From a phage: a stretch of DNA of 64,000 nt. This document shows, one piece after another, positions 10,256-37,883 of this stretch. The translations under genes were made by a program, and so were the position numbers. The notes under the pieces were generated by a model. The model saw only the letters and a program-made list of their open reading frames with translations. It ran no database searches and was not told where the DNA came from. Within the stretch, counting starts at the first letter, position 1; every line of letters starts with the position of its first letter. The stretch lies in NCBI GenBank assembly GCA_012813795.1, contig GCA_012813795.1_4087.1. One strand, given 5' to 3'.

Positions 10256-12955
10256 TTACCAATTCACATTACCAGAACTTGAAGGGAACCCAGAACTAAC
10301 TGGGAAGGAACTTCCGGCAGCGTCGAATGATGAACCAAACAGGTCTAAACGCGAACGTTTTTCTATATTAATTTCGGTTATTTGTAAATCATCAGTTTTC
10401 ACTGTACCAATCCAGTATATTGAATGAGTTTCAGCTAATTCAGTTGTTGATATGTGATAGTTTGCAATACCCTGTACTAATTTAATATACACATAAAATG
10501 TAGTATTGGCAGGATTTGCTTTCACAGTTGTTAAATCTATATTTGATATTGGTAATTTATAGTGTTTACCTGATAGCAGTACTGGTGTCTCTTCGGTGAA
10601 GTATATAATAAAACCTTGAGCAACATCTTGGGAAACAAGACATATAAATGGATTTCCTTTATCAGTCCATGCATTATAATCCGCTAATGTAGTACCATAT
10701 GTTCTAAAAATTGTTTTGTTTGTATTATCTATACTTTGAAGAATACCAAACCCAATATTAGGTAAAGCGAATGGTTGACCATCTAATGCATAGATAGGAC
10801 GTGCACCAGCTATATGGAAATTATTAAATTGGGCTGTCGCTTTATCCACTGTAGCACGGAAAAATGGAGAGTTTGTATTACCAACTGTATTAAAGAAACC
10901 TGGAATACCACCACCAATGAAGTAGAAAGAACCAGCATCATATATAGTAATACCAATACTTCCACTATCAAGATGATATGCGGTATCTGTTTTGTAATCC
11001 CCAGCTTGAACACTTTCATGTACTAAACGTTTGAACGACCATGTTGTAATATCACCAGTTCTTGTATTGACATTCAATTCAACAACTCGTACATATAAAC
11101 CACGGGCTGTAGTAGATGCTGCAAGAACACCAAAAACAGGAATATCAGTTTGTTGTGGAACAAATACAGATAATGTTTTTATTGATTCTGGTGATATATT
11201 CCATGAACTAGCAACTTTAGCAAATTCGGAATTTCGAATAGCATTCATTATATCTTGAGACATACTGATTGTACCATTATTCAGTACATTACCTTTATAA
11301 TCAAAACTAATAGGAGTTGATGTTCTATTATCTGCCACCAAAACACCACCATTAGTAGTGACCGTTGAACCAGAAATTGAACTTATAAAAATTCTAGATT
11401 CTGGTGTAGTTATAAACGCTCGGTCTGGTGTTGGTTCATAACCAGGAACAGTACCATAGTCTAGAGACTTAAATGTAAAGTTCGGTGTAGCTTTATGTAC
11501 AGCATAGGATGGATAAAAACGACCATCACCAGAACGTCTTGAATATTGTTTAGTACTGTTATTTGGTAATAACTCTACACCTACTTGGTATGAACCAACT
11601 GCTGAACCAAATCTTGGTGATACTACACCATTAATAAAATTAGTTGCTGATACACTTCTAACATTCATTAAATTAAACAATGACTGTGGTGGATATTTCG
11701 CATATGATAAGTTCAATGCTTCTGCGAGGTTTGGTGAGAATGAACAAAATGCATCACCAGTTGATGGTACATAGCAATAATTACTAAAAATATTACGACC
11801 ACCCGCGTGAAGATAAAATGGATCTTTTGTTATGCATTGACCCGTTACATTCATACTTGAACCCGTGTCATTAACAGCAACTGGTGTAGTCGTTAACATA
11901 TTATCTAATTTACATTGTTTTGTCACAACATCAAAAGTCATACTAAAACCATGTTGTGGGCGTGTGTCATATCGTCCATTTGTCATCCACATATCACCAC
12001 ATAATCTAAATCTGAATTCGGATGTACCAGATTTCTGTGCAACATATAAATCTGGATCTGTCATATAAACACCAAACCCAATAATACCACTTGGAATTAA
12101 AACGTATGGATTATCATTGGTATTTGTTGAATTTATTTTCATAGTTGGAACAATATTGTCATCATATACCATTGCATTATAAAAAGTTCTTGTGGCCCAA
12201 CCAGTAATTCTAGTAACACTATAAGTACCACCACCTGGGTTATTACTTGGACTAAAAGTAACTTTAGTAACGGATATTTTAAGAGTATTGCTTGGTGTAT
12301 CTAAACTGAAAAAGTATAATGAACCATCTTCAGCACGAATAACAAATTGTATTGCACCAAAAGGTTGTACGGCTGTATGGTCTGATAGAATAATACCAGT
12401 GTGCATTGTATCATTCATAGTACCATTATTGACTGAAACAAAAACTCTATCAATATATGTACCATCAGAATTTTCAGTTCTCACCAAACCACAAGTAATA
12501 TCATCACTGCTTGGATACAAATAAACTGCATACCCAGCACCAAAATAATTTGGTTTATATGCACGAGTAGTATTAACCATACGACTTGTATTTGTTGTAC
12601 CAACCGCCTGGGTCATATAACTATAATAAATCCCCTGTGTACTTCCATTAGTACCCGGACGTAACATTACTAAAGTGTTATCATCTTCCAAAAATAATTT
12701 TGTATTTCTGGAACTAGCATTTTCTGAAGAACCAACTGTTGTACCATTGACACCAGCAGGTAGATAGTTTTGTGTACCATAACGAGAAATGGGTAACATA
12801 CCAACCATTTCCAGCATATCATCTTGTGTATATGCATCTATTGTGAGATTGCCATTTTCATCAAATACGTTATCATTGATGCTCTGAACACTTCTCTTAC
12901 CTTTGACTGTTACATTATGTGTAACATCAATGCCACCATATATTTTCTTTGCCAT
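10256..12955 (-). CDS. Fibre-like beta-rich structural protein (tail fibre / receptor-binding candidate), paralog 1
   Basis: 899 aa; shares MLPISRYGTQNYLP ... LRPGTNGS N-terminal motifs and the conserved C-terminal domain with 6903-9671. Confidence 0.5.
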   Translation of the reverse strand: MAKKIYGGIDVTHNVTVKGKRSVQSINDNVFDENGNLTIDAYTQDDMLEMVGMLPISRYGTQNYLPAGVNGTTVGSSENASSRNTKLFLEDDNTLVMLRPGTNGSTQGIYYSYMTQAVGTTNTSRMVNTTRAYKPNYFGAGYAVYLYPSSDDITCGLVRTENSDGTYIDRVFVSVNNGTMNDTMHTGIILSDHTAVQPFGAIQFVIRAEDGSLYFFSLDTPSNTLKISVTKVTFSPSNNPGGGTYSVTRITGWATRTFYNAMVYDDNIVPTMKINSTNTNDNPYVLIPSGIIGFGVYMTDPDLYVAQKSGTSEFRFRLCGDMWMTNGRYDTRPQHGFSMTFDVVTKQCKLDNMLTTTPVAVNDTGSSMNVTGQCITKDPFYLHAGGRNIFSNYCYVPSTGDAFCSFSPNLAEALNLSYAKYPPQSLFNLMNVRSVSATNFINGVVSPRFGSAVGSYQVGVELLPNNSTKQYSRRSGDGRFYPSYAVHKATPNFTFKSLDYGTVPGYEPTPDRAFITTPESRIFISSISGSTVTTNGGVLVADNRTSTPISFDYKGNVLNNGTISMSQDIMNAIRNSEFAKVASSWNISPESIKTLSVFVPQQTDIPVFGVLAASTTARGLYVRVVELNVNTRTGDITTWSFKRLVHESVQAGDYKTDTAYHLDSGSIGITIYDAGSFYFIGGGIPGFFNTVGNTNSPFFRATVDKATAQFNNFHIAGARPIYALDGQPFALPNIGFGILQSIDNTNKTIFRTYGTTLADYNAWTDKGNPFICLVSQDVAQGFIIYFTEETPVLLSGKHYKLPISNIDLTTVKANPANTTFYVYIKLVQGIANYHISTTELAETHSIYWIGTVKTDDLQITEINIEKRSRLDLFGSSFDAAGSSFPVSSGFPSSSGNVNW

Positions 12956-12999
12956 ATATATCCCTTTTATCTAGATATCCATAGTGTATTTATAATAGT

Positions 13000-13025
13000 A
13001 TAAAAAAAGCACCCAAAGGGTGCTT
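13000..13025 (-). terminator. Intrinsic terminator candidate downstream of nrdG and small ORF
   Basis: Stem agcaccc/gggtgct (13008-13024) with loop aaa, followed on the minus strand by U7. Confidence 0.5.
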
Positions 13026-13032
13026 CTTCATA

Positions 13033-13191
13033 TTAACCGCCGTGTTTAGAAAATTCAACTGCTCTTAATTGTTTAAGTGCTTCTTTTCTGGTTGGGTGAC
13101 GACCGAGAACTTTCTTCCCTGTGTGGTCAGTAACAACCCACTCATTTCCACGTTTCTGTATCTTTTCCGAAATAATATCAAGATAACGCAT
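13033..13191 (-). CDS. Small ORF (52 aa) MRYLDIISEKIQKRGNEWVVTDHTGKKVLGRHPTRKEALKQLRAVEFSKHGG
   Basis: Below ORF-track size cutoff; ATG at 13191-13189 preceded by GGAG; start overlaps nrdG stop; ends just before terminator. Confidence 0.35.
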   Translation of the reverse strand: MRYLDIISEKIQKRGNEWVVTDHTGKKVLGRHPTRKEALKQLRAVEFSKHGG

Positions 13192-13657
13192 AATCTACTC
13201 CTTTACGAAGAATACGTTGATTATTAGAGCCTCTAAATGGTAATTCTAAATTCTTTTCTTCAAGAATAAATTTACCATCAACTAATACATCAATGTACTC
13301 TAGTATTGCGGAGGCATGATTATTTATTATTTCCTCTAAAGTATAACCACTCCAGCACCAAATATCTTTATTTGGATATTTTTCTTTTACTACTTTACAT
13401 AACTCAACAACAGTACTGATATTCTTTGGCATCAATGGATCACCACCAAGAAGTGACAACCCTTGTACATATGGCTTGTTAAGTTCATTCAGGATGATAT
13501 CAACTGTTTCAGTACTGAATTCTGAACCACTGCGATAATCCCATGCTTTTTCGTTGAAGCATTCTTCACATCCGTGGCTACACCCTGAAACAAAAAGGGA
13601 GCATCTAACTCCCTCTCCATTGACTAAATCATCCTTGATTATCGTCTGGTAATTCAT
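13178..13657 (-). CDS. nrdG: Anaerobic ribonucleotide reductase activating protein (radical SAM)
   Basis: N-terminal VNGEGVRCSLFVSGCSHGCEEC cysteine cluster typical of NrdG activases; directly downstream of nrdD. Confidence 0.85.
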   Translation of the reverse strand: MNYQTIIKDDLVNGEGVRCSLFVSGCSHGCEECFNEKAWDYRSGSEFSTETVDIILNELNKPYVQGLSLLGGDPLMPKNISTVVELCKVVKEKYPNKDIWCWSGYTLEEIINNHASAILEYIDVLVDGKFILEEKNLELPFRGSNNQRILRKGVDYALS

Positions 13658-13964
13658 CTAATATTGCACTCACTATTTCAACAAGAACATCTCCGTGACA
13701 TGATTTGGGCTTACAAAAGCACCCAAGACGCTTCCCAGCCAATTCAAGTAGTTCTTCGATAGTAACCTCACCATTATCAATTCTTTGGATAAGATACTCT
13801 CTGAACTTCTCAATCGACTCTTCTCGTGTCGGAACTATAAACTCTGCCTTTGTTTGTTTGTCATTAATGTGGGTAAATGGATTTCCCCATTTAGACCCAC
13901 GACCAATATACACATCATATGGTTCTTTATATTTGTTAACTACAATTGGTTTTAAGTCCATCAT
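13629..13964 (-). CDS. Conserved hypothetical protein with Cys/His cluster (DUF4326-like)
   Basis: [12 protein letters not shown] ... [15 protein letters not shown] motif pattern; 111 aa. Confidence 0.45.
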
Positions 13965-14323
13965 AGACCTTTAGTAAAAGTACGATTGATTACATCATCT
14001 TGTTGTTCTTTTGTTAGTGAATTGAAACGAACTGCATAACCACTAACACGAATTGTAAGTTGCGGATACTTTTCTGGATTATTTTGTGCATCAATGAGTT
14101 GTTCTTTAGATAGAACATTTACATTCAAGTGCTGACCACCTTCAATATTCGGTGCGTGTTGAATTTCCACATCACGCAGTACCTCACCATCAAAAGTACT
14201 CAAAAGTACTTCATCATCTTCGGAAATGGTCTTTGATACAATAATACGTGCAATATCATTTTCTATTAGCATGATAGTTCCACGGTGCTCACCAGACATG
14301 ACTTGTTTACCTTGAATTGACAT
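13961..14323 (-). CDS. grcA: Autonomous glycyl radical cofactor, GrcA/YfiD-like
   Basis: C-terminal [10 protein letters not shown] ... [21 protein letters not shown] ... RTFT is near-identical to the conserved GrcA glycyl-radical domain. Confidence 0.85.
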
Positions 14324-14332
14324 AATATCTCC

Positions 14333-16138
14333 TTACATGTGTTGTATACGTTGAATAACTTCAGCTTGTTTACCTTTATTGAACGGGCGACTATTTGGGG
14401 CACTAAGATATCCCGAAACTCTGCGAATAACCGACATTGTGCGTTCATTGCGGTTGTCACATACCGGACAATGGAAACCATTTTTATCTACACTAAATTC
14501 ACCCTCAAAATCACATTCAAAACACTTATCGACCTTCTGATTAATACCAAAATATGGAATTTTAGTATAAGCAAAATTTATTAATGTTTCAAGTGCTTGT
14601 ATATTATTAGCTAGATTTGGTGTTTCAACATAGCTAATATTACCACCATTGCTTAGATAAGCAAAGTTTTCCTCATAATCCCATTTAGCAAAAGGTGTAC
14701 TTTCAACCCATACTGGTTGATGGAATGAGTTAGTGATAAAGTCACGTTTCAGTACTGAAGGATGTTTTGCCTCAATACAACGTGCAAATTTATAACATAG
14801 TGATTCTGCTGGTGTACCGTAAAGACTAAATGCAATGTTACTCTCTTTTTTGAATTCATCACATTTTGCTTTCATGTAGTTCAAAATACTCATACAGAAC
14901 TCTTTACTAATAGAACCAGTGAGGATCTCTGAACACTCAGATAACCCAACATAACCAATACTGATACTAGCATAACCATTATAAAATAAATGGTCAATAG
15001 TGTCTTCAGGATCAAGACGTGCAATCGCACCTTCAGCGAAAAGTATAGGGTTTTGTTTTGCCTTTGTACCTTTTAAACGTTCTACACGGTTCATCTGTGC
15101 TCTGTAAGCAATATTCATGTGCTCATCAATCTTATCAAAGAAATCACCATCAGACTCACTCTCAAGAGCAATTAGTGGTAAGTTGATAGACACAACGCCA
15201 AGGTTGAATCTACCATTGTATTTTTCTTCTCCTTGTATATTTTCCCATTTCCCTAAGAAACTTCTGCATCCCATAGGAGTAACAGGAATAGTTGTGCTTC
15301 CAGTAACTTTTTGATTCAAAGGTACGGATACAAAATCAGGATAGATGCGTTTAGCTGCACAACGCATAGCTAATTGTTTTAAGTCATAATTACAATCAGT
15401 ACTGTTCATATTAATTCCATCCTGAAGAAAGAATATTACTTTAGGAAATACTGGAGTAATCTTATCTTTACCTAGTCCATTTTCATGTACTTTCAAATAT
15501 TGTTCAGTGATTAGTTTTTCAAATTTAGATGTACCTAATCCTAAACTCAAAGAAATGAACGCAGCCTGGCCATTAGTACTGATCATTGAGTTTGTTTGAT
15601 ATAGAATTGTTTGACAACCGTCATAAACTTCCTTACGCAACTCATCTTCGATGAATTCAGTGCTAAGATTGTATTTCTTTTGTTTTTCTAGGAGTTTATC
15701 CCATGACTTTTGTACATATGGTGCAAGGCCAGTGTCAATGTGAGCCAACGACTGACCACCGTATTGTGAGCTTGCAACAGCCTGAACGATCTGGGTTAGT
15801 ACTGTACAAGCTACCCCAAAGCTTTTTGGTTCTTCAATCTTGGCACAACCAATCATGAAGCCATTAGCAAGCATATCAGGATAATTAACTAAACAACAGT
15901 TTGTTAATGGGCTAATGTAATAGTCTAAATCATGAATATGACCGTAACCTTCATTATGCCACTTCATCAATTCATCAGGAATCACATCTTGGGAATAATG
16001 TTTAGAAAGAATACCTGCCAATAAATCACGATGTGTATTAACACATTTAGCGTCTTTATTTGCATTTTCGTTTGTTAAATCAGCGTTACTCTGGTTGAGG
16101 AAGTTAGTTACGTCCGTATATAATTTATCTATTTGCAT
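14333..16138 (-). CDS. nrdD: Anaerobic ribonucleoside-triphosphate reductase (class III), intact and uninterrupted
   Basis: 601 aa; C-terminal Zn ribbon CFECDFEGEF ... CPVCDN and glycyl radical motif RRVSGYLSAPNSRPFNKGKQAEV. Confidence 0.9.
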   Translation of the reverse strand: MQIDKLYTDVTNFLNQSNADLTNENANKDAKCVNTHRDLLAGILSKHYSQDVIPDELMKWHNEGYGHIHDLDYYISPLTNCCLVNYPDMLANGFMIGCAKIEEPKSFGVACTVLTQIVQAVASSQYGGQSLAHIDTGLAPYVQKSWDKLLEKQKKYNLSTEFIEDELRKEVYDGCQTILYQTNSMISTNGQAAFISLSLGLGTSKFEKLITEQYLKVHENGLGKDKITPVFPKVIFFLQDGINMNSTDCNYDLKQLAMRCAAKRIYPDFVSVPLNQKVTGSTTIPVTPMGCRSFLGKWENIQGEEKYNGRFNLGVVSINLPLIALESESDGDFFDKIDEHMNIAYRAQMNRVERLKGTKAKQNPILFAEGAIARLDPEDTIDHLFYNGYASISIGYVGLSECSEILTGSISKEFCMSILNYMKAKCDEFKKESNIAFSLYGTPAESLCYKFARCIEAKHPSVLKRDFITNSFHQPVWVESTPFAKWDYEENFAYLSNGGNISYVETPNLANNIQALETLINFAYTKIPYFGINQKVDKCFECDFEGEFSVDKNGFHCPVCDNRNERTMSVIRRVSGYLSAPNSRPFNKGKQAEVIQRIQHM

Positions 16139-16189
16139 TTCACATTCCTTGTATGTTATTCGTTTGGGTGAATTTATTTAACTTCAACA

Positions 16190-16240
16190 AAGAGCATTAT
16201 AGCCTCATATTGGCCTTTTTCTCTTGACCTAAATCAAGGA
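16190..16240 (-). promoter_or_regulatory. Putative FNR-dependent class II promoter of nrdD
   Basis: TTGAC-CTAA-ATCAA palindrome at 16224-16237 (9/10 match to FNR box TTGAT-N4-ATCAA) centred 41.5 bp upstream of predicted start site; perfect TATAAT on minus strand at 16201-16196. Confidence 0.45.
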
Positions 16241-16269
16241 AAAGTGCAATTGATTAAGTACTGTACAAA

Positions 16270-16294
16270 CACAAAAAGCACCACTTGGGTGCTT
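16270..16294 (-). terminator. Intrinsic terminator candidate upstream of nrdD promoter
   Basis: Stem agcacc/ggtgct (16277-16293) with 5-nt loop and U5 on the minus strand. Confidence 0.45.
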
Positions 16295-16371
16295 TATAGA
16301 ATAGACAAAATAACAACTGACCAGATTAGCATAACATATAAATTGCAATTACACAGCATCCAATGAATAGT

Positions 16372-16557
16372 TTAATTAGTCTCATCTGGACTCCATGTAA
16401 TAGTTACAGTAAATGTACCTTCCTGGAAGCCATATTCATCTTGTGGGATTTGTTCAGCTAATGGGTTAAATCTTGAATCAAAAGCTTCATGCACATCTCT
16501 TTGGATATCATATAGACTTTCACCATCATATTCTTTTTTGAAGATTTCATTCTGCAT
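16372..16557 (-). CDS. hypothetical protein
   Basis: 61-aa ORF, acidic. Confidence 0.4.
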   Translation of the reverse strand: MQNEIFKKEYDGESLYDIQRDVHEAFDSRFNPLAEQIPQDEYGFQEGTFTVTITWSPDETN

Positions 16558-28138: not shown

Positions 28139-31100
28139 ATGAAACCAATAGCTGGCTTAGATCAATTTCCATTTGTTATAGGTGGATTGCAGGTTACTGC
28201 TGCAAAGATAGAAGGGCAAGTATTTGTTAAAGAATTGTATGTTATAAAACAAAGAACATTCGATTCGTATGATTTGATATCTGAAAATTTCAAGATTTAC
28301 AAAGATATAAAAATCACAGGTAGAAATAAAGATAAATCAACATTGACGTATGATGATGACGATGCTGAAATTGCTAAATCTTTAGCAAATAATACATTTT
28401 GCATAAAAGAATCTGATGATTTTAACAAAAAATATGGTTTTGGTATACAATATCAATTGAATAAAATAAAATTACATAATGGTGAAGTGATATTTAGACA
28501 ATCCTCAATTCGACCATCAGTACTTAATGGTGTTTTCATTACACCGAGTTCATTTGAGATTGATGTTGGTCAACAACAAGTATTTGACGCGATATATGAT
28601 CCACAAAGTTGGATTAATAAAAATGGTACTTGGGATTATGATAAATCAGTTTTTGATGTGGTTTCTTTTACACAAACATCAATCACACTTCTCGCTAAAC
28701 AAGATGCCATTAATACAGAAATAAAATATTCACCTACTGGACGAGAAATAAATCGCATAGCAGTCAGTATAGGTTCAGTAGTAGATAACACTTCTATAAT
28801 TAAAAACATTTCAATAACACCTAATGTCATAAATTCCAAATTATCTGAAGATTTTACAGTTAATGTAGTTTATGATCCTATCAAATATAAATTCAAATCA
28901 GGTAAATGGTCTGTCAGTGATACATCAGTACTACAATTTGTTTCTGGTGATGGTGAAACTGCGACATTTAAACCTATCAGCGTTGGTTCTTCCACAATAA
29001 CATTCACATTAGATAAAGATAGTACAAAAACTGCAACTGCATCAGTTGAAGTATCTTATGCAGATTTAAAATCCGTCACAATATCACCAGAAAATGTAAC
29101 TGGTACTATAGGTGAAACTGGTAGTATTTCAATAAGTTATGTACCAGATAATGCACAAAAAGGTGGTTCATGGGCTATTTCTGATAAATTAATACTAAAA
29201 GAATTATCATCGACAATATCAGAATTTGATTATGAATTGGTTGGTAATGGAACAACATATGCTACATTCGTCCCATTAGCTAATTATGATGGTTCAATGA
29301 TAACTGCTAAATTTGATGTTAACTATTCAAAACTTGAAAACATTGTTCTTACACCTTCATCAGTTAGTAATCTAGTTCCAGGCGACACAGGAAAAATTAG
29401 TATTGAATATACACCAAGTACTGTTGAAACTGGTGGTACATGGTCATTCAATCCAACTGGTGTAATAGAACAAGATCTCAGCAAAAGTACGAGTACTGAA
29501 ATGTATTATAATGTATTAATCCCAGGTACATCAACTGCAACATTCCACCCAACTGCGTCATATGATGGAACTCCTAAAACTGTTTCATTTGAAGTTGGGA
29601 ATTCCGAGTTAACTGGTATTACGCTAACACCTACTACATCAACCGTAAAAATTGGTGATGATTTCTATATTGATATTACATATGAACCAAACACTGCTCT
29701 ACATGAAGGTACATGGAATACATCAGATTTTGAGAAATATGTAACACTCGAATCAGATAGTACACCTGATCGTGCACATTTTAAAGCTATAGGTGTGATT
29801 GATTCTGTTAATCTGACATATTCAAAAGGAACAATTAGTGCAACTAACAAATGTGCAGTTAATTATTCTGATTTAAAATCTATCACATTAAGTCCAACTG
29901 CAACATATGCTAAACTTGGTGATGATTTCTATGTAGATATTGCATATGATCCAGACACAGCACAACACACGGGTTCATGGAATACATCAGATTTTGAGAA
30001 ATATGTAACACTAGAATCAGATAGTACACCTGACCGTGCACACTTCAAAGCAATTGATTTAGTTGATGAAGTTGATTTGGTATATTCGAATGGTAATATA
30101 AGTGATACGAATTATTGTGGAGTTAGTCGTCCACCATTAATTTCAGTTTCATTGTCACCTTCTTCTGAAAAAGTTAAAGTTGGTGATTCCTTTAATGTGA
30201 AGATTACATATAACCCTAATACTGCTCAACATTACGGTGAATGGAATTTGGATGAAATAAAAGAATATCTTACATATGATTCGGATCTTAGTGTTTATGA
30301 TGTGGCTGTGTTTGATGTTATTAAACGTTCTGAAACACCAATAGAATTGAAATTTACAAGTGCAGGTAAAACTGCAACAAACACTTGTGAATTTGAAGAA
30401 GCTGTGTTAACCGGAATTTCATTGAAAATACAAGAAAATACGCCAATATACGACAGCCTATATGTTGTACCATATAAAGGTGACATATATATTGATGTTC
30501 TACCTATTCCAGCCGACGCAAAATTACCAGACGATATTGGAACCATCACTGATAATACGGGATTATATGATTTAACGTTTTTTGATTTTTTGAGTTTTAA
30601 TAAAGAAAAAAGTACAAATCACCGTTTGTATTTTGATTTTGTTTCATCATTTGATGAGTATATGTATTTTATTGAGGAATCTTCAAAAGGATTAATATTC
30701 ACATATACACTGTCTAATGGTATGACGGTAGACTCACCGGCAATGGTAACAAATTTTCCAGAACTGACGAAAGTCACCCTTGTGCCATCATCTGGAAAAT
30801 GTGATGTTAACTCAATAATAAAATGCGAGGCAACACTTGATAATGGTATGTCAACTTATTATATTAATCCGTTGAGTACTTATACAAGTGAACACGAGGA
30901 TTATTTGGTAATTGAAGATAGAACATCCTTTCAGCCGTTTGATGAATTCCTTGAACCAATTGAAATTGTAGGTAAACTTCCAACAAATATATATGTACCA
31001 GATGGTAATTACGTATATTTCACATATACACTATCAACCACACCTGCCCAACCGTTGATTGATTATAATATTTACATATATGATAGTAATGAATGTATAA

Positions 31101-31426
31101 AAGGACGTATAAAAAATCCAACAGACGTAGTTAACATAAAATATATGAATGTCTTTTTCTTTGACATAGAGAATAATCCACCAAATGCTTTATATAGAGG
31201 AAAAATGGAAGGTGGTATTCCTGTTACGTTTCAATATGACACCCAAAATTCTAGATTAAATTCGTATACTTATATGGTACAGGGGGTAACTGATGGACCA
31301 ATAACTCTAAAATACACTTCATCTGCTACTGGTGTTATTAGAACTGCACAAGTTGATGTTACTGGACCAATGACTGATGATAGTAATAAAACTGATGAGG
31401 GGGGTGATGGTGATTTACTTAAATGA
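28139..31426 (+). CDS. Giant Ig-like (Big_2/Hoc-like) repeat protein 1
   Basis: 1095 aa built from ~85-90-aa repeats with Y.DLKS ... GD.FY.DI.Y.PDTA.H.G.W ... F.A pattern; AAGGAGA upstream; two near-identical 264-bp tandem DNA repeats inside. Confidence 0.65.
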   Translation: MKPIAGLDQFPFVIGGLQVTAAKIEGQVFVKELYVIKQRTFDSYDLISENFKIYKDIKITGRNKDKSTLTYDDDDAEIAKSLANNTFCIKESDDFNKKYGFGIQYQLNKIKLHNGEVIFRQSSIRPSVLNGVFITPSSFEIDVGQQQVFDAIYDPQSWINKNGTWDYDKSVFDVVSFTQTSITLLAKQDAINTEIKYSPTGREINRIAVSIGSVVDNTSIIKNISITPNVINSKLSEDFTVNVVYDPIKYKFKSGKWSVSDTSVLQFVSGDGETATFKPISVGSSTITFTLDKDSTKTATASVEVSYADLKSVTISPENVTGTIGETGSISISYVPDNAQKGGSWAISDKLILKELSSTISEFDYELVGNGTTYATFVPLANYDGSMITAKFDVNYSKLENIVLTPSSVSNLVPGDTGKISIEYTPSTVETGGTWSFNPTGVIEQDLSKSTSTEMYYNVLIPGTSTATFHPTASYDGTPKTVSFEVGNSELTGITLTPTTSTVKIGDDFYIDITYEPNTALHEGTWNTSDFEKYVTLESDSTPDRAHFKAIGVIDSVNLTYSKGTISATNKCAVNYSDLKSITLSPTATYAKLGDDFYVDIAYDPDTAQHTGSWNTSDFEKYVTLESDSTPDRAHFKAIDLVDEVDLVYSNGNISDTNYCGVSRPPLISVSLSPSSEKVKVGDSFNVKITYNPNTAQHYGEWNLDEIKEYLTYDSDLSVYDVAVFDVIKRSETPIELKFTSAGKTATNTCEFEEAVLTGISLKIQENTPIYDSLYVVPYKGDIYIDVLPIPADAKLPDDIGTITDNTGLYDLTFFDFLSFNKEKSTNHRLYFDFVSSFDEYMYFIEESSKGLIFTYTLSNGMTVDSPAMVTNFPELTKVTLVPSSGKCDVNSIIKCEATLDNGMSTYYINPLSTYTSEHEDYLVIEDRTSFQPFDEFLEPIEIVGKLPTNIYVPDGNYVYFTYTLSTTPAQPLIDYNIYIYDSNECIKGRIKNPTDVVNIKYMNVFFFDIENNPPNALYRGKMEGGIPVTFQYDTQNSRLNSYTYMVQGVTDGPITLKYTSSATGVIRTAQVDVTGPMTDDSNKTDEGGDGDLLK

Positions 31427-31462
31427 TTATAAATTAATTTTAATGCTAAGGAGAAATATTTT

Positions 31463-33982
31463 ATGGCAGAATTAAAATCAATTAGATTTAACAATAATGG
31501 TGTTGTAAACAGCACCATTTATAAAACCAGTACTATAACGGTTACATATGACCCAGTTGATTGGTATGATCAAACTGGGAAATGGGTATATGATAGTACG
31601 TATATTAAAGTGTTGTATAGGAGTGGTGAGAAACTTATTTTCAAAACACTCAAAGAAGGAAACACAAATATATCATTTTCACCAACTAATTATGATTCTT
31701 TAAAACAAACGTGTACTGTTGATATTCATACCGATACAGTTCAAAGTATCTCATTGAATCCAACTGAAAACATGTTGAAGTATAGTTCTGAATTTGAAAT
31801 CGATGTCACTTATAACCCACCAATTGGCACGGATCTTCCAACATGGACATATGATAAAAATGTTTTAACATATGATGCTGAAAAAAGTACAAGGGATAAA
31901 GCTTTCTTTAAAGTAAATTCTAGTGTTTTAAGTCCAGTATCAGGTAAGATTACATGTACGTATGGTGTAGATTTATCAGCGGAAAGTTTTTATTACGTGT
32001 CCGAAAACCCCGCATCACGTGTAAAATTGTCTCCTGATACATCAAACGTACTACTTGGTGATACGTTCTCAGTTAATATTTTATATGATCCACTTGGGTG
32101 TGATAAAACTGGTGTATGGAGTTACGATGATACATGTCTTGAATACAACGAATCACGCTCAACTTCTGATGTTGCATATTTTAAAGCAATTAAAACACCA
32201 GAAGGAAATAATGACACGTTAAAATTAACATATAAATGTGCATCATCCGTGTCCGATTCAACAACGTGTACAATATCATATGATCCATTGCAATCAGTTA
32301 AATTGACAACAATCCCAGCTTCATTGAATCCAGATGCAATGATAAACGTAAAAGCTGGGGATGGGTTTAGTGTTAAGGTCACATATGTCCCAGACACCGC
32401 CAGACATGATGGTGTTTTGAATTTTAACCCACTATATTTCACCTATGAAAAAGACCAATCTGCACAAGACACTTTTTTAATCACACCAATTCTACCATCT
32501 ATAGACACTGATGAACCTGTGCAGCCGATATCTTTTACTTCTAACGGGATTATATCAAATATACTCAATTTCACAATAGATTATTCTGACCTTGTTTCGG
32601 TATCTTTTGACCCACCAGAAGTTAATACAACCGCTGGTTCTGTATTTGGTGTAACTGTGATTTATAATCCAAGCACAGCTAAAAATGACGGTGAATGGAA
32701 CATTGCTAATGTTCTGGATTATATTAAAAAAGGAACAACAGTCGGTGATTCAACTTCATTCCAATCTTTGAAAGCCACAGTTGATAGTGATGGAAACCCA
32801 TCAAGTATAGATATGGTTTACAAAAGTGGTTATATCAGTACACCTATTAAATGTAACATTGATTATAGTGAGTTGAAATCTATTAATGTAAAATGTGATC
32901 CGTCATATCCACTGAATACTTCTCTTGGGATAATAGCAACATATACACCAGACACCGCAAAACATGATGGTGTATGGACATGTTCATCAGATTTAATTCC
33001 AGGTGCATCTACTCCAGATCTTGGGTCATTCCGTACAGGTAAATTAGTAAATGCAAAAAGTGTAGTTACTGTAACATCTAAATCCAATAAAGATATTGGT
33101 GCATCATGTGGATTTACCTCAACTTATTCTAAGTTAAAAGGTATAACAGTAACACCACTTGGAACAACAACAGTTAAACCTGGTGATTCATTTGGTATAC
33201 AAATATCGTATAATCCAAACACTGCACAGCATCTTGGTATGTATAATTGGGATTTTAACCCTGATTATTTTGAATATAACTATGAGTTGTCAGAGCCAAA
33301 CAAAGATATACAATATTTTAATGCTTTATTACCCACACCAGAAGAAGGTTCAGTACTAACATGTCTCCCACCTGAAGGGTCTGGTGCTACATCTGGTAAA
33401 TGTGTAATAACCGTTAGTTATCCTCCAATCAAATCAGTGTCTATTGAACCACCTGAATCAACTCATAAATTTGGTGATGTGTTCAACCTTATCGTGAAAT
33501 ATGATCCAGATACAGCAAGAAAAATGGGTACATGGGAATATGATAAAGATCGAATAGCATTAGTTAATCCGGTAACCGACCTTAACGATCAAGCAACATT
33601 TTATGTTATCAATAACGGTATAGGTGGAGAAACGGATATATCATATTCATATTATCCAGGCGTAACTGCAACACATAAGTGTACTGTAGAATATGAAAAC
33701 TTGGATACCCTAAGTTTAGTTCCTCCAAGAATCAAGAAAAAACCAGGTAATACTTTCTATATAAAAATCATATACACACCAGATGGTGCATTACATGATG
33801 GTACATGGACATACAATAAAACTGTATTTGAATATACACAGGAAAGTACTAAAGATTTGGGAGTTTTTAAAATTTCCGACACTGCTCCTGAAGGTGCATA
33901 CCAATTATCATATCAACCAAAAACTGCTGATCCAGATCAAACATTCCCACCTGTAATTTTACAATGCACTATTACAAAATAA
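31463..33982 (+). CDS. Giant Ig-like repeat protein 2
   Basis: 839 aa with the same repeat signature (YNPNTAQHLGMYNWD, YTPDTAKHDGVWT); AAGGAGA upstream. Confidence 0.65.
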   Translation: MAELKSIRFNNNGVVNSTIYKTSTITVTYDPVDWYDQTGKWVYDSTYIKVLYRSGEKLIFKTLKEGNTNISFSPTNYDSLKQTCTVDIHTDTVQSISLNPTENMLKYSSEFEIDVTYNPPIGTDLPTWTYDKNVLTYDAEKSTRDKAFFKVNSSVLSPVSGKITCTYGVDLSAESFYYVSENPASRVKLSPDTSNVLLGDTFSVNILYDPLGCDKTGVWSYDDTCLEYNESRSTSDVAYFKAIKTPEGNNDTLKLTYKCASSVSDSTTCTISYDPLQSVKLTTIPASLNPDAMINVKAGDGFSVKVTYVPDTARHDGVLNFNPLYFTYEKDQSAQDTFLITPILPSIDTDEPVQPISFTSNGIISNILNFTIDYSDLVSVSFDPPEVNTTAGSVFGVTVIYNPSTAKNDGEWNIANVLDYIKKGTTVGDSTSFQSLKATVDSDGNPSSIDMVYKSGYISTPIKCNIDYSELKSINVKCDPSYPLNTSLGIIATYTPDTAKHDGVWTCSSDLIPGASTPDLGSFRTGKLVNAKSVVTVTSKSNKDIGASCGFTSTYSKLKGITVTPLGTTTVKPGDSFGIQISYNPNTAQHLGMYNWDFNPDYFEYNYELSEPNKDIQYFNALLPTPEEGSVLTCLPPEGSGATSGKCVITVSYPPIKSVSIEPPESTHKFGDVFNLIVKYDPDTARKMGTWEYDKDRIALVNPVTDLNDQATFYVINNGIGGETDISYSYYPGVTATHKCTVEYENLDTLSLVPPRIKKKPGNTFYIKIIYTPDGALHDGTWTYNKTVFEYTQESTKDLGVFKISDTAPEGAYQLSYQPKTADPDQTFPPVILQCTITK

Positions 33983-34052
33983 TAGACTGAAATTACTTTA
34001 CAAAAAAAATGTGGTTGAATATTCAACCACATAATAAGAAGGAAACATAATT

Positions 34053-35678
34053 ATGATAGAAGATTCAAAAAATCTTATTTCAGTTAGTTTAAACAAAAGA
34101 ACTATTAGAACTTCTGTTCGTGATGTTAACACATTATATGTTAGTTTTAATCCACCTGACTATATTAATCAGGTTGGAACATGGACATATGATGAACAGT
34201 ATATTGAAATGATCACACAAGATAATTTGGTTTTTGTTTTTAAATCTATAAAAAGTGGTGTAACCACCATAACATACACACCACGTGATAATAAAGCATT
34301 ATCGAAGAATTGTATAGTTAATATTGAAAAAATACCATTATCATCAATTAGTCTTAACCCAAATTATATAACTTTATACAAAGGTCAAACTTTTGATATT
34401 GATATATCATATATCCCAGATGGAGCAGTTCATTCGGGTAATTGGAGTAATTTAAACAATGATATATTGTATATAGGTCAACAAAGTACACCTGATAAAT
34501 CAAGAATGCAAGTACTAACAACTGATGCTAAGATGATAACTTTATATTATACCAGTGGCGAAATATCAGTTCCTTTGAATTGTACTATATTGAACAACCC
34601 AGCAGATGAAATTATTTTCGATCCACCATCACCAATTAATGTAACAGTTGGTGAGAGTTTTTTTGTAAACATAAACTATGCACCAGAAAATGCGGATAAG
34701 GTTGGATTCTGGGAATATGATGATTCAGTACTGATGTTATTGAATGATAGTGATAAGGCATCCAGTGCACATTTTGTGGCTACCAAAAAAACCACATCAA
34801 CTGGAACTGAACTTAAATTCCGTTCAGGTGATGTGTACTCAACGTTACAGTGCTTTATAACTCCTGGTGTTTTAGATTTATTAACATTAACACCTAGTTA
34901 TGAAACGGTGGTTGTTGGTGACGCGTTTGACATTGGAATAACCTATTACCCAGAAGACATAATTCACAAAGGTATATGGGAATATGATTCTACATATTTC
35001 AAAAAAATGTTCGATGACTCAAATACTGCAACATTTAGATTAATCAAAAAATCCGACATACCATTAAAATTAAGATATATCTCTTATGGGAGAGCATTTA
35101 ATAATATATGCACTACTGTTGAAAATGGTGATTTAGTTTCATTACAATTAAACCCTAATTCCGAATCAGTTGAGGTTGGTAAAAGTTTTGATATCGCAAT
35201 AACATATAAACCTGATAATGCTTTACATAGTGGTATATGGGATTTCGATTCGGAATATATTAAATTGGAAAAATCAAGTACAGTGGATAAAGCAACATTT
35301 ACAGTACTGAAATATAATCCAAATCCATTAACATTAACTTATAAATCAGGTAAAACAACTGCAACAAACAAATGTATTACTGTAAAAAATACACCAGTAT
35401 TAAGTAGTATTAAAGTATCCCCAGAATCAACTGAAATGAAAGTTGGTGATACAGTATTATTATCAATTTCATACAACCCTAATACAGTAGAGCATATGGG
35501 AATGTGGTATTATGATAAAAAACTATTCAAATTAATAGACACAGGTCAAACACATGACTATGGTATATTTGAATGCTTGGCGGTGTCAGACGCAAAATCA
35601 CCAATAGTATTTTCAAGTGCTGGAAATGCTGATGCTTGTATTGTCACAACTAAAGAAAAAACAACTAAAGAGGATTAA
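34053..35678 (+). CDS. Giant Ig-like repeat protein 3
   Basis: 541 aa, same repeat signature (YIPDGAVHSGNW, YKPDNALHSGIW). Confidence 0.65.
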   Translation: MIEDSKNLISVSLNKRTIRTSVRDVNTLYVSFNPPDYINQVGTWTYDEQYIEMITQDNLVFVFKSIKSGVTTITYTPRDNKALSKNCIVNIEKIPLSSISLNPNYITLYKGQTFDIDISYIPDGAVHSGNWSNLNNDILYIGQQSTPDKSRMQVLTTDAKMITLYYTSGEISVPLNCTILNNPADEIIFDPPSPINVTVGESFFVNINYAPENADKVGFWEYDDSVLMLLNDSDKASSAHFVATKKTTSTGTELKFRSGDVYSTLQCFITPGVLDLLTLTPSYETVVVGDAFDIGITYYPEDIIHKGIWEYDSTYFKKMFDDSNTATFRLIKKSDIPLKLRYISYGRAFNNICTTVENGDLVSLQLNPNSESVEVGKSFDIAITYKPDNALHSGIWDFDSEYIKLEKSSTVDKATFTVLKYNPNPLTLTYKSGKTTATNKCITVKNTPVLSSIKVSPESTEMKVGDTVLLSISYNPNTVEHMGMWYYDKKLFKLIDTGQTHDYGIFECLAVSDAKSPIVFSSAGNADACIVTTKEKTTKED

Positions 35679-35681
35679 ATC

Positions 35682-37883
35682 ATGTCAAAAGATGATCAAT
35701 TAACATCTGTTACCCTACAACCAGAATCAGTAACACTGAATGTGGGTGACAATAAAATTGTATATGCAGTTTATACACCAAATACATATACACCAAAAAA
35801 AGGTAAATGGATATATGATGCAAATATTGTATCTGTTACACATGAAGAAGATACCTTTATGCAATTCATTGCAGTAAAACCTTCTGAAACTGAAATAACG
35901 TACATTCCATTGGGTGCACCTGAATTTGCTTGTAGTACAGTTGTTACAATTAAAGGTACTGATCCAACAGATGATTTGGTATTAGATCCAGAAAACGAAA
36001 CAGTTCAGGTCAATACTGATTTTTATATTAATGTAAAATATAATCAAGCAGATGGTATCCCAACATGGAAATATGACCAATCTGTAGTTAAATATATGCC
36101 TGATAGTACACCTAGTAAAGCACACTTTAAAGCACTAAAAACTACTGCGAATAGTATTCCTTTGGTTTGTGAATGCGGAAATAACACTAAAATGAATTTA
36201 TGTACAGTTGTTGATACTGCGGCCACCATATCATTGAATCCACAACACGTAACTAAACAAGTTGGTGACGACTATTATGTTGATATTTTTTACTCCAAAA
36301 AAGTTCAAGATCCAGTAGTTACATGGGACGGTACTGATGAGTTTTTAGAATTACAACCTGATAGCAACCCATACCGTGCTCATTTCAAAGTTGTAAAATA
36401 TTCTGAAGATCTTGTTTCAAGAAGAATTACAACTTCAATGGGTAAAAGTGCCACACATACCTGTGTTACACGTTATAGTGATTTGAAAAACATTTTCATT
36501 GATTATCCAAGTAAAAATTTAATGGTTGGTGACCAATTTAAATTAACAGCGTTGTATTATCCAGATACGGCAAATCATGATGCTAAATGGTCGTTTGATT
36601 CTGGTAATTTTATTATTGATAGTAGTAGAACCACGCCAAATGAAGCATACTTCACTGCACTAAAAGCAACATCAGGGGCAGACTTCAAGAGTATTACATT
36701 GAGTAGTGGTACATTTAAAGATGAATGTAAATGTATAATTAATGAATCCTCATACTCAGAAGAAGATAATGTGCCAGTACTAAATCAACGTGCAAGTGGG
36801 GATTTGGATAGTGTTGTAGTAACTCCATTAACAATTGCATCCAGAGTTGGGCAGCCTAAAATTATATCTGCGGTTTTCGAACCAAGAGATTATAGTGATA
36901 AATCAGGAACTTGGATGTATGATCCACAAACACTTGACGTATTGTCTGAACAAGATAACTATATAATCATAAAACCGAACCATATTAGTAATACATTTGT
37001 TGAATTTGTTTCCAATGATAAACCTTCATTTAGTTCTAATTGTTCCATCGTGGTTTCAAGTGATGGTTTTGTAATTTCACCAACACACCAACATGTAAAA
37101 TTAACTGAAGATTTTTATATTGATGTTTTATTCGATGAATCGAAAGGTAAACCAGTATGGAGATACGATACTAATTACATAAAAATGTTGGATGACAGTA
37201 CTGATACCAAACCACATTTTCAAGCATTTAATATGACAAGTGAGGATGAATTAATAACCAAATTAGTATGTTCGTATGACAATATGGAACAAATATTCAC
37301 TTGTTATATTGATAAAAATACTAACCCAATATCATGTCACCCATCAAAATCATTACAATTTATGTCATCTGATTTTTGGATAAATGTTGCATATGATAAA
37401 GAAAATACAAAATCTTCTTTATTGGATGTCGATTTTATTACATGGGATGATGATAATGAATACGTTGAACTACAACCTGACAGTACCTCTTTCGTAGCCC
37501 ATTTCAAAGTTGTGAAATATAAAAATGGTCAAATTACAAGAACAGCAACCTCCAAATCTGGACATACCGCCACATTTGCCATATCATTATATTCACCATA
37601 TACTTACATCGATATGACACCACAATTTGAAACTTATTCTATGAATAGTATTATAGTTTTGAGCATAAATTACGGAGGTAGTCCATATACACCTGAATAC
37701 AAAAAATTCAATGACATGTTAAATTATGATTCTAGATTTCTGCAATTGGAGGATGATAGTACTGGCGATAAACTATACTTCACTCCTTTATCTCCAACAG
37801 GAAATAACTTTACAACTGTTATATTTTCCGACGATAACACACGTTTGATGTCTGCAAAAAGTTGCATTACAATTAAAAAATAA
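35682..37883 (+). CDS. Giant Ig-like repeat protein 4
   Basis: 733 aa; more diverged repeats (YYPDTANHDAKWSFD); AGAGGA upstream; ends at bidirectional terminator. Confidence 0.6.
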   Translation: MSKDDQLTSVTLQPESVTLNVGDNKIVYAVYTPNTYTPKKGKWIYDANIVSVTHEEDTFMQFIAVKPSETEITYIPLGAPEFACSTVVTIKGTDPTDDLVLDPENETVQVNTDFYINVKYNQADGIPTWKYDQSVVKYMPDSTPSKAHFKALKTTANSIPLVCECGNNTKMNLCTVVDTAATISLNPQHVTKQVGDDYYVDIFYSKKVQDPVVTWDGTDEFLELQPDSNPYRAHFKVVKYSEDLVSRRITTSMGKSATHTCVTRYSDLKNIFIDYPSKNLMVGDQFKLTALYYPDTANHDAKWSFDSGNFIIDSSRTTPNEAYFTALKATSGADFKSITLSSGTFKDECKCIINESSYSEEDNVPVLNQRASGDLDSVVVTPLTIASRVGQPKIISAVFEPRDYSDKSGTWMYDPQTLDVLSEQDNYIIIKPNHISNTFVEFVSNDKPSFSSNCSIVVSSDGFVISPTHQHVKLTEDFYIDVLFDESKGKPVWRYDTNYIKMLDDSTDTKPHFQAFNMTSEDELITKLVCSYDNMEQIFTCYIDKNTNPISCHPSKSLQFMSSDFWINVAYDKENTKSSLLDVDFITWDDDNEYVELQPDSTSFVAHFKVVKYKNGQITRTATSKSGHTATFAISLYSPYTYIDMTPQFETYSMNSIIVLSINYGGSPYTPEYKKFNDMLNYDSRFLQLEDDSTGDKLYFTPLSPTGNNFTTVIFSDDNTRLMSAKSCITIKK

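Follow-up and report, generated by a model that had tools for sequence, protein, structure and literature searches.

A small gene in a phage genome, situated directly downstream of the gene for the class III (anaerobic) ribonucleotide reductase NrdD, is assigned by homology to the GrcA/YfiD/T4-Y06I type of autonomous glycyl radical proteins. The DNA analysed here (the window) is a stretch of 64,000 nucleotides, and the gene belongs to a unit that is read as five genes, nrdD, grcA, a DUF4326 gene, nrdG and a conserved short ORF (orf52), with predicted terminators on both sides. The encoded protein probably repairs the oxygen-damaged pyruvate formate-lyase (PFL) of the host, as part of an nrdD operon that would be switched by FNR. 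The observation holds up and forms a coherent whole, although it is not new: the characterisation of the family dates back to 2001, and annotations of the gene exist for A4, RaK2, K64-1 and Muenster, in agreement with the preliminary description, which did not regard the gene as novel.

The open reading frame is present as it was first described (Table 1). Its product matches the Pfam family Gly_radical (PF01228) with 64 bits, against a cut-off of 22, and the NCBIfam GrcA model TIGR04365 with E=6e-37 over residues 19-119. The phage vs.6 family, phrog_1209, is matched with E=1.5e-50, and here residues 4-119 of the protein correspond to positions 2-120 of the 121 in the profile, so that the N-terminal half is included. 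The best match in a PDB sequence search is to residues 669-758 of PFL (PDB 2pfl, 1h16; E=3e-30), aligned with residues 28-119 of the phage protein, and the NMR structure of YfiD (6owr) is matched with E=2e-29. In the core (residues 59-120) the protein shares 77% of its residues with E. coli GrcA and 79% with PflB; the corresponding values are 52% and 51% for the whole protein, and 26% and 20% for the N-terminal half. The GrcA signature had been called almost unchanged. This is true of the three blocks quoted in its support (RTFT among them), which are identical to those of E. coli GrcA, but it does not extend to the core or to the protein as a whole, as the identities above indicate.

The alignment to E. 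coli GrcA and T4 Y06I confirmed that the glycine radical motif is conserved. One segment of the radical loop is identical across PflB, GrcA, T4 vs.6 and the protein described here, and G95 together with 24 further positions is invariant among 65 homologs. The existence of a T4 homolog, mentioned in the preliminary description, is equally well founded: Y06I is the product of gene vs.6, carries the name GrcA in RefSeq and shares 61% identity with the phage protein, and its activity is given as biochemically validated in PMC8683613. The equivalog cut-off of TIGR04365 (170 bits) is missed by the phage protein, which scores 126.7 bits. In the controls, E. coli GrcA reached 233.9 bits and the validated Y06I 151.1 bits, which is also under the cut-off. 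Because the validated T4 protein falls short as well, the cut-off divides bacterial GrcA from phage members rather than functional from non-functional proteins, and it was rejected as unsuitable for deciding on membership.

The phage protein is small and stands alone, lacking both a catalytic barrel and a Cys-Cys active site; it contains no cysteine at all, and its gene has its own ribosome-binding site, start and stop codons. In the AF2 model, the C-terminal half superposes on YfiD (6owr) and on PFL, with the glycine loop forming a beta-hairpin packed on helices, and the N-terminal half is predicted to be a small SH3-like beta-barrel. At the codon level the gene is under purifying selection, with dN/dS values of 0.12-0.26 relative to its relatives, at dS of up to 0.5-2.2. 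Mimics of host domains are frequent in phages, and an anti-host role may be considered, in which the protein is a decoy soaking up PflA or SAM, or capping PFL, and redirects the pyruvate flux. The divergent N-terminal half, only 26% identical to bacterial GrcA and predicted to form a barrel, would suit such a role; the solved YfiD structure spans just 60 residues, and a review calls the YfiD N-terminus disordered. A decoy is nevertheless very improbable. Strong purifying selection has left no variation at the radical glycine or anywhere in the loop, as would suit a functional carrier of the radical. PFL activity is restored by the T4 homolog (PMC8683613), and co-expression with a formate-consuming reductase favours keeping PFL active.

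The preliminary description had placed the gene in an nrdD-grcA-nrdG operon. The shared unit is retained, and its map is corrected to five genes, with the DUF4326 gene between grcA and nrdG and with orf52 after nrdG. The distance between nrdD and grcA, given before as about 10 bp, measures 9 bp (TAA-GGAGATATT-ATG), and this gap contains the Shine-Dalgarno GGAG; the grcA-like gene is read from this arrangement as translationally coupled to nrdD. The start of the DUF4326 gene overlaps the grcA stop codon as ATGA, and nrdG overlaps both of its neighbours, the overlap with the DUF4326 gene being 29 nt. Homologs of orf52 are found at the same place in K64-1 and RaK2.

Table 1. Features of the nrdD-grcA-nrdG region, in the order of transcription
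Feature	Position in the window	Strand	Basis and remarks
Intrinsic terminator of the preceding transcription unit	16275..16295	minus	AAAGCACCCAAGTGGTGCTTT followed by a T-run; terminator scan; stem kept in 8/8 aligned phages
FNR-like box TTGATTTAGGTCAA	16224..16237	minus	9/10 consensus positions of TTGAT-N4-ATCAA; function predicted
Predicted -10 hexamer TATAAT	16196..16201	minus	No -35 hexamer, class II activator-dependent layout; invariant in 8/8 aligned phages
nrdD, complete class III (anaerobic) ribonucleotide reductase, T4/E. coli type	14333..16138	minus	601 aa; Pfam NRDD E=7e-163
Shine-Dalgarno GGAG of the grcA-like gene	14329..14332	minus	Directly after the nrdD stop codon; sequence read
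grcA-like gene, autonomous glycyl radical protein	13961..14323	minus	ATG start, 120 aa; radical glycine G95 at 14039..14041
DUF4326 gene (T4 NrdA.1-like)	13629..13964	minus	Pfam PF14216 E=9e-25; phrog_464; nrdA.1-like in the RaK2 and Muenster annotation
nrdG, radical SAM activase of NrdD	13178..13657	minus	TIGR02491 200.8 bits, cut-off 126
Conserved 52-aa ORF (orf52)	13033..13191	minus	Overlaps the nrdG end; own AAGGAG ribosome-binding site; phrog_3684 E=1.4e-17
Strong intrinsic terminator closing the operon	13007..13025	minus	AAGCACCC-TTT-GGGTGCTT followed by T7

The position of a second radical domain so close to nrdD raises the question of whether the small ORF stems from an nrdD that was split by an intron or fragmented, and is its displaced 3′ exon or a remnant of its radical domain. 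The nrdD gene of T4 does carry a group I intron, and PHROGs families of fragmentary NrdD (phrog_4218, phrog_29160) match the 3′ part of the NrdD encoded here. This NrdD is full length, as had been claimed: it reaches 766 bits on NF006732, the equivalog model of the E. coli type (cut-off 657), aligns end to end with T4 NrdD (PDB 1h78) with 560 bits, and retains the thiyl (catalytic) cysteine of PMGCRSFL, the asparagine of NLGVV, the CxxC...CxxC zinc site and its own glycyl radical motif, RRVSGYL. A ribosome-binding site and an ATG belong to the ORF itself, and the best matches of its product are PFL and GrcA, not NrdD; identity to the C-terminus of the neighbouring NrdD is 17.7% over the whole protein and 28% in the core, compared with 79% between the cores of the phage protein and PflB. 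A scan of positions 12900-16500 against Rfam found no family at threshold and no intron, the sole listing being a chance-level sRNA (E=0.94). With a full-length NrdD, a PFL-type ORF and no intron model, the exon reading is already refuted by the data and its probability is close to nil, and the earlier view of a separate protein next to a complete NrdD is upheld.

The unit is preceded by a candidate class II FNR promoter. The box lies 22 nt upstream of TATAAT and, taking the transcription start to be about 7 nt after the -10 hexamer, is centred near -41.5. Among the FNR-activated promoters of E. coli with a known start, 19 of 23 have the site at -41.5 +/- 4 (PMC3688515), and the position of the phage box agrees with this rule. 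The host genes yfiD, focA-pflB and nrdD are themselves FNR targets in E. coli (PMC3688515), and the E. coli grcA promoter (TTGATTTAAATCAA, 22 nt, TATATA) has a layout like that of the phage. The motif TTGAT-N4-[A/G]TCAA is located 22-23 nt upstream of TATAAT in nine phages from at least two genera, with a diverging sequence in the spacer between the box and the -10 hexamer. The box, the hexamer and the 22-23 nt spacing are kept in A4, 121Q, ph0011, UE-S1, Muenster, K64-1, RaK2 and Munch, five with the perfect consensus. FNR-like 14-mers are not enriched in the window as a whole, with 11 observed and 9.85 expected by chance, and so it is the position and the conservation across phages that carry the promoter call. 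On these grounds the FNR promoter proposed in the preliminary description holds computationally, and the prediction of a class II FNR promoter is well supported but unproven.

YfiD and T4 Y06I are the sole validated spare parts among the glycyl radical proteins (PMC8683613). In the account of their action given in PMC8683613, which cites Wagner et al. 2001, the activase PFL-AE installs the radical, and the activated spare part then forms a complex with oxygen-cleaved PFL, the activity of which is restored. A review also cites the in vivo rescue of an inactive full-length PflB by GrcA. For the phage protein, a mechanism like that of Y06I is the best inference because of the 61% identity, the identical loop segment and the radical domain superposing on YfiD. 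With a mass of 13-14 kDa, the protein would amount to a duplicate of the glycyl radical domain found at the C-terminus of PFL. First, the host PFL activase PflA would put the radical on G95 of the RVSGYAV loop. Second, the activated protein would dock on host PFL that had been cut by oxygen at G734. Third, it would supply the missing radical domain, and pyruvate could again be converted to acetyl-CoA and formate. With the predicted class II FNR-type promoter in front of the unit, transcription by host RNA polymerase would be expected at low oxygen only. The likely benefit is that the host PFL would keep running during a microaerobic infection, which would sustain the supply of ATP and provide formate for the class III reductase.

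The neighbourhood of the gene allows a different partner to be proposed, namely the phage's own NrdD, with the protein being activated by NrdG and replacing the C-terminus of NrdD cut off by oxygen. NrdD is also cut by oxygen at its radical glycine, the gene is coupled to nrdD and shares the operon with nrdG, the phage unit contains no PflA-type activase, and the RVSGY pentapeptide is common to the protein and to RRVSGYL of NrdD; spare parts for other glycyl radical enzymes have also been a matter of speculation in PMC8683613. The similarity of the protein points elsewhere, since its core resembles PflB far more closely than the NrdD C-terminus (79% versus 28%, with 17.7% to NrdD for the whole protein). 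A zinc ribbon, which in NrdD stands before the glycine loop, is missing from the protein, and so is any cysteine. The T4 and T5-like homologs are unlinked to nrdD, the T4 homolog rescues PFL in vitro (PMC8683613), and 121Q possesses nrdDG without grcA. A spare part for NrdD is thus improbable, and the repair of host PFL is retained as the probable function.

It can be asked why a PFL spare part should adjoin nrdD. Most of the class III ribonucleotide reductases (RNRs) that have been studied use formate as the reductant, and formate is also the product of PFL (PMC4390871). The NrdD encoded here is of the T4/E. coli type, and the adjacency could therefore reflect the supply of formate to the reductase. 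This rationale is tentative and has clearly less than even chances, because most phages leave grcA and nrdDG unlinked. Homologs of the gene occur in 1,585 deposited phage records. Within the IMG/VR viral loci, nrdD or nrdG lies within 5 kb of grcA in only 6 of 80, and a general linkage of phage grcA to nrdDG was dismissed on this count. The T4 gene, vs.6, belongs to the vs/regB region, and its counterparts in T5-like phages are found among small early genes. With so few linked loci, and with the T4 and T5-like genes elsewhere, a coupling through formate cannot apply in general.

Where the linkage exists, it is seen in two forms. The order nrdD-grcA-(DUF4326)-nrdG is common to A4, ph0011, UE-S1, RaK2, K64-1, Muenster and Munch, the last of these without the DUF4326 gene, while the Aeromonas T4-like phages have the order nrdD-nrdG-vs.6-nrdC-nrdH. 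The comparison of gene orders indicates that the linkage to nrdDG is lineage-specific and arose in two different arrangements, one in RaK2-like jumbo phages and the other in Aeromonas T4-like phages. Phage 121Q, from the same genus as A4, keeps the FNR-box promoter and the order nrdD-DUF4326-nrdG. A tblastn search of its whole 348.5 kb genome with five queries found no grcA homolog and nothing better than E=0.5, with E=4e-79 obtained on the window as a control, and a relocated copy of grcA in 121Q was excluded on this basis. Because 121Q has no homolog, grcA is regarded, from these genome comparisons, as an accessory and dispensable gene.

A more elaborate proposal can be made for the RaK2-like jumbo phages, in which a PFL spare part would be wired into an FNR-switched nrdD-nrdG unit and would secure formate, the reductant on which the class III reductase would depend, while oxygen fluctuates; the phage NrdG, and not host PflA alone, might charge both radical proteins, and the conserved N-terminal SH3-like barrel would dock the protein or recruit the activase in a phage-specific way. 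Taken as a whole, this proposal is unlikely. No description of a formate-RNR coupling by a PFL spare part was found in the searchable literature.

The closest relative of the region is Escherichia phage A4 (ON286972), which is 98.8% identical over the full length of positions 13000-16300. Phage A4 is an Asteriusvirus, a jumbo phage of 355 kb with E. coli LF82 as the isolation host. The next nucleotide relatives of the same segment are ph0011 (82%) and UE-S1 (80%), and the Klebsiella Alcyoneusviruses K64-1 and Muenster are 73% identical to it. The GrcA-like protein is 99.2% identical to A4_491, which bears the name 'pyruvate formate-lyase' in GenBank. The enterobacterial host suggested in the preliminary description is confirmed by the identity of the region to the E. 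coli phage A4. The argument originally used, from the near-identity of the GrcA core, is weak, as the identical motif is also present in Aeromonas phages and in one protein of a Bacilli metagenome-assembled genome (MAG).

The origin of the gene was judged by codon-level and indel characters, since a 62-residue core at about 80% identity would resolve poorly in a phylogeny. A recent capture of a host grcA or pflB fragment, with no phage-specific role, would account for the conserved motif blocks that are identical to the host protein. That phages and hosts exchange sequence at grcA is shown by T4: at the end of vs.6, ~190 nt match E. coli grcA with 97-100% identity, this identity does not extend beyond the stop codon, and the 5′ part is unrelated at the DNA level; the ~95% nucleotide identity of the 3′ half of vs.6 to the host gene therefore indicates a recent exchange. 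The gene at 13961..14323 shows a different pattern. The codons of its core have 69% nucleotide identity to E. coli grcA, with 48% at third positions, which is near saturation. A BLASTN search of the gene against 5,426 E. coli genomes returned no close copy, the best match being 71.6% over 176 nt. Its GC content of 35.8% is near that of the phage window (34.4%) and not that of host grcA (47.7%).

The relatives of the protein agree with this picture. Where a source name or the length of the contig makes the origin identifiable, the best 120 of them, from a search of 5.8 billion proteins, belong with few exceptions to phages (jumbo, T4-like and T5-like); the exceptions are one Bacilli MAG protein and two entries labelled E. 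coli on contigs of 168-350 kb. In an alignment of 125 sequences (these 120 database matches and five references), 33 belong to the GrcA type: a 2-aa insert precedes IEGGQH in them, and their cores average 91% identity to E. coli GrcA. The insert is missing from the remaining 92, the protein described here among them, and these stand at the same distance from GrcA as from PflB. The gene also occupies the same position in at least two genera of jumbo phages. The BLASTN maximum, the third-position identity and the phage-like GC were taken to rule out a recent host capture, which these sequence comparisons already refute for this gene, so that hardly any probability can be given to it. The gene is best read as an old resident of phages under purifying selection, in view of its phage relatives, the match of at most 71.6% to E. 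coli genomes, the 48% identity at third positions, the phage-like GC and the dN/dS of 0.12-0.26.

The additions made here to the existing knowledge are modest: the operon map is corrected, the FNR promoter gains support across genera, evidence is given against a recent origin from the host, and 121Q is found to lack the gene. The main value lies in annotation, as the products named 'pyruvate formate-lyase' in A4, ph0011, UE-S1 and K64-1 should be renamed autonomous glycyl radical cofactor (Y06I/vs.6 family). The region also offers a compact example of phage genes placed under a host oxygen sensor, with a predicted class II FNR promoter that is conserved in at least two jumbo-phage genera. Such a promoter implies that anaerobic dNTP synthesis and PFL repair would be switched on together, and only at low oxygen, which is plausible in phages of gut Enterobacteria. 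The link between formate and the reductase, if true, would explain why the attachment to nrdDG was made twice; it is a hypothesis, and many phages have the gene unlinked or do not have it.

One of the known systems closest to the protein is T4 Y06I. Both have 120 aa and the same two-part layout, with an overall identity of 61% (radical domain 79%, N-terminal half 41%); both share the ARIIVSKT block, belong to phrog_1209 and fall below the NCBIfam GrcA cut-off. The T4 gene differs in its location, an early region (vs/regB/denV) remote from nrdD and nrdG, and in its radical domain, which is of the GrcA type and carries the 2-aa insert ahead of IEGGQH and the LTPEQQR motif; the 3′ half of the gene is 95% identical in nucleotides to host grcA. 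In contrast, the GrcA-like gene described here has no insert, reads LTKEQQD, is equally distant from GrcA and PflB and contains no tract identical to the host.

E. coli YfiD/GrcA (6owr) is likewise a stand-alone PFL radical domain, with a 77% identical core, and its gene has a class II FNR-type box at the same 22-nt spacing to the -10 hexamer. The phage protein is 7 residues shorter, the N-terminal halves are only 26% identical, and the transcription units differ: grcA of E. coli is monocistronic, and its phage counterpart comes second in the nrdD operon. The C-terminal domain of PflB shares with the phage protein a 79% identical core, the lack of the 2-aa insert and the LTKEQQ motif. Unlike PflB, the phage protein is without the other ~640 residues of PFL and without the catalytic pair C418/C419; it cannot act as a formate-lyase on its own, and the GenBank name 'pyruvate formate-lyase' on the homologs of A4, K64-1 and ph0011 is a misnomer.

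Among the jumbo phages, the Asteriusviruses of the 121Q type are without grcA. In Serratia phage BF and Yersinia phage fHe-Yen9-04, grcA is 0.4-1.2 kb away from the portions of nrdD and nrdG that were matched, a distance suggestive of inserted sequence. The RaK2-like module (nrdD-vs.6-nrdA.1-nrdG), represented by RaK2, K64-1 and Muenster and also by Munch and these Serratia and Yersinia phages, resembles the present unit in gene order and in its FNR-box promoter, and its GrcA-like proteins are 71-74% identical to the one described here; the gene is annotated as vs.6 in RaK2 and as 'autonomous glycyl radical cofactor' in Muenster.

The presence of the grcA-like gene differs between close relatives. 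Escherichia phage 121Q, which belongs to the same genus (Asteriusvirus) as phage A4, retains the predicted FNR-box promoter and the nrdD-DUF4326-nrdG order, with 8 bp between nrdD and DUF4326, and no GrcA homolog was found in its entire 348.5 kb genome (records L002 and L011-L018). The grcA-like gene is cleanly present or absent inside one genus.

The DNA of the T4 homolog vs.6 (L004:13558-13920) was compared with E. coli grcA (L005:402-785). The T4 gene has a sharp mosaic structure. Its 5′ part of ~225 nt has ~45% identity to the host gene and is unrelated to it at the DNA level; its final ~190 nt are 97-100% identical, and this identity ends at the stop codon. Over the 62 core codons the two genes share 94.6% identity, with 92% at third positions. 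Such a pattern suggests that T4 and the E. coli chromosome recently exchanged sequence by gene conversion.

The homologs of A4 (L001:4962-5324), ph0011 (L007:2289-2651), UE-S1 (L008:2251-2610) and K64-1 (L009:2277-2639) are deposited as 'pyruvate formate-lyase', which is wrong, because this 120-aa protein has no catalytic barrel. Eight 'viral' IMG/VR contigs retrieved by the GrcA profile (L081-L083, L085-L089) in fact carry bacterial pflB; upstream of the matched segment they are 94-100% identical to E. coli PflB. Matches to the GrcA family in viral collections thus include host pyruvate formate-lyase, on misbinned or prophage-flanking contigs.

Features of the window discussed in this part
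Feature	Position	Strand	Annotation
52-aa ORF, conserved	13033-13191	-	phrog_3684, E=1.4e-17
DUF4326 gene (T4 NrdA.1-like)	13629-13964	-	embedded in anaerobic reductase operon
GrcA-like N-terminal half, residues 1-52	14167-14323	-	predicted beta-barrel
PIN-PhoH fusion, 487 aa	22619-24082	-	PF13638 (N-terminal PIN domain), PF02562 (PhoH)
Four consecutive large ORFs (1095, 839, 541, 733 aa)	28139-37883	+	weak Ig-like Pfam matches

Translational coupling links the DUF4326 gene to both of its neighbours. In 121Q, RaK2, K64-1 and Muenster this gene likewise adjoins nrdG, whereas Munch lacks it. The association of DUF4326 with ribonucleotide reductase genes is a recurring one. The 52-aa ORF, the final cistron ahead of the terminator, has its own AAGGAG site and overlaps the end of nrdG; homologs occupy the equivalent position in K64-1 and RaK2, and neither Pfam nor NCBIfam gave a match. 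Outside the operon, the PIN-PhoH protein has its counterpart in 121Q gene 480 ('PhoH-like'). The four large ORFs, encoded on the strand opposite to nearly all remaining genes and matching only Ig-like families, and these weakly (HYDIN/VesB-like, Cep192), may be virion or fibre proteins.

The N-terminal half of the GrcA-like protein is predicted to fold into a small SH3/KOW-like beta-barrel (pLDDT ~90). This half is conserved in the homologs of jumbo and T4-like phages, with Q7, G15, I17 and R50 nearly invariant, and in T5-like homologs the match starts at residue 31. For YfiD, the solved structure spans only 60 residues, and the N-terminus is called disordered in a review.
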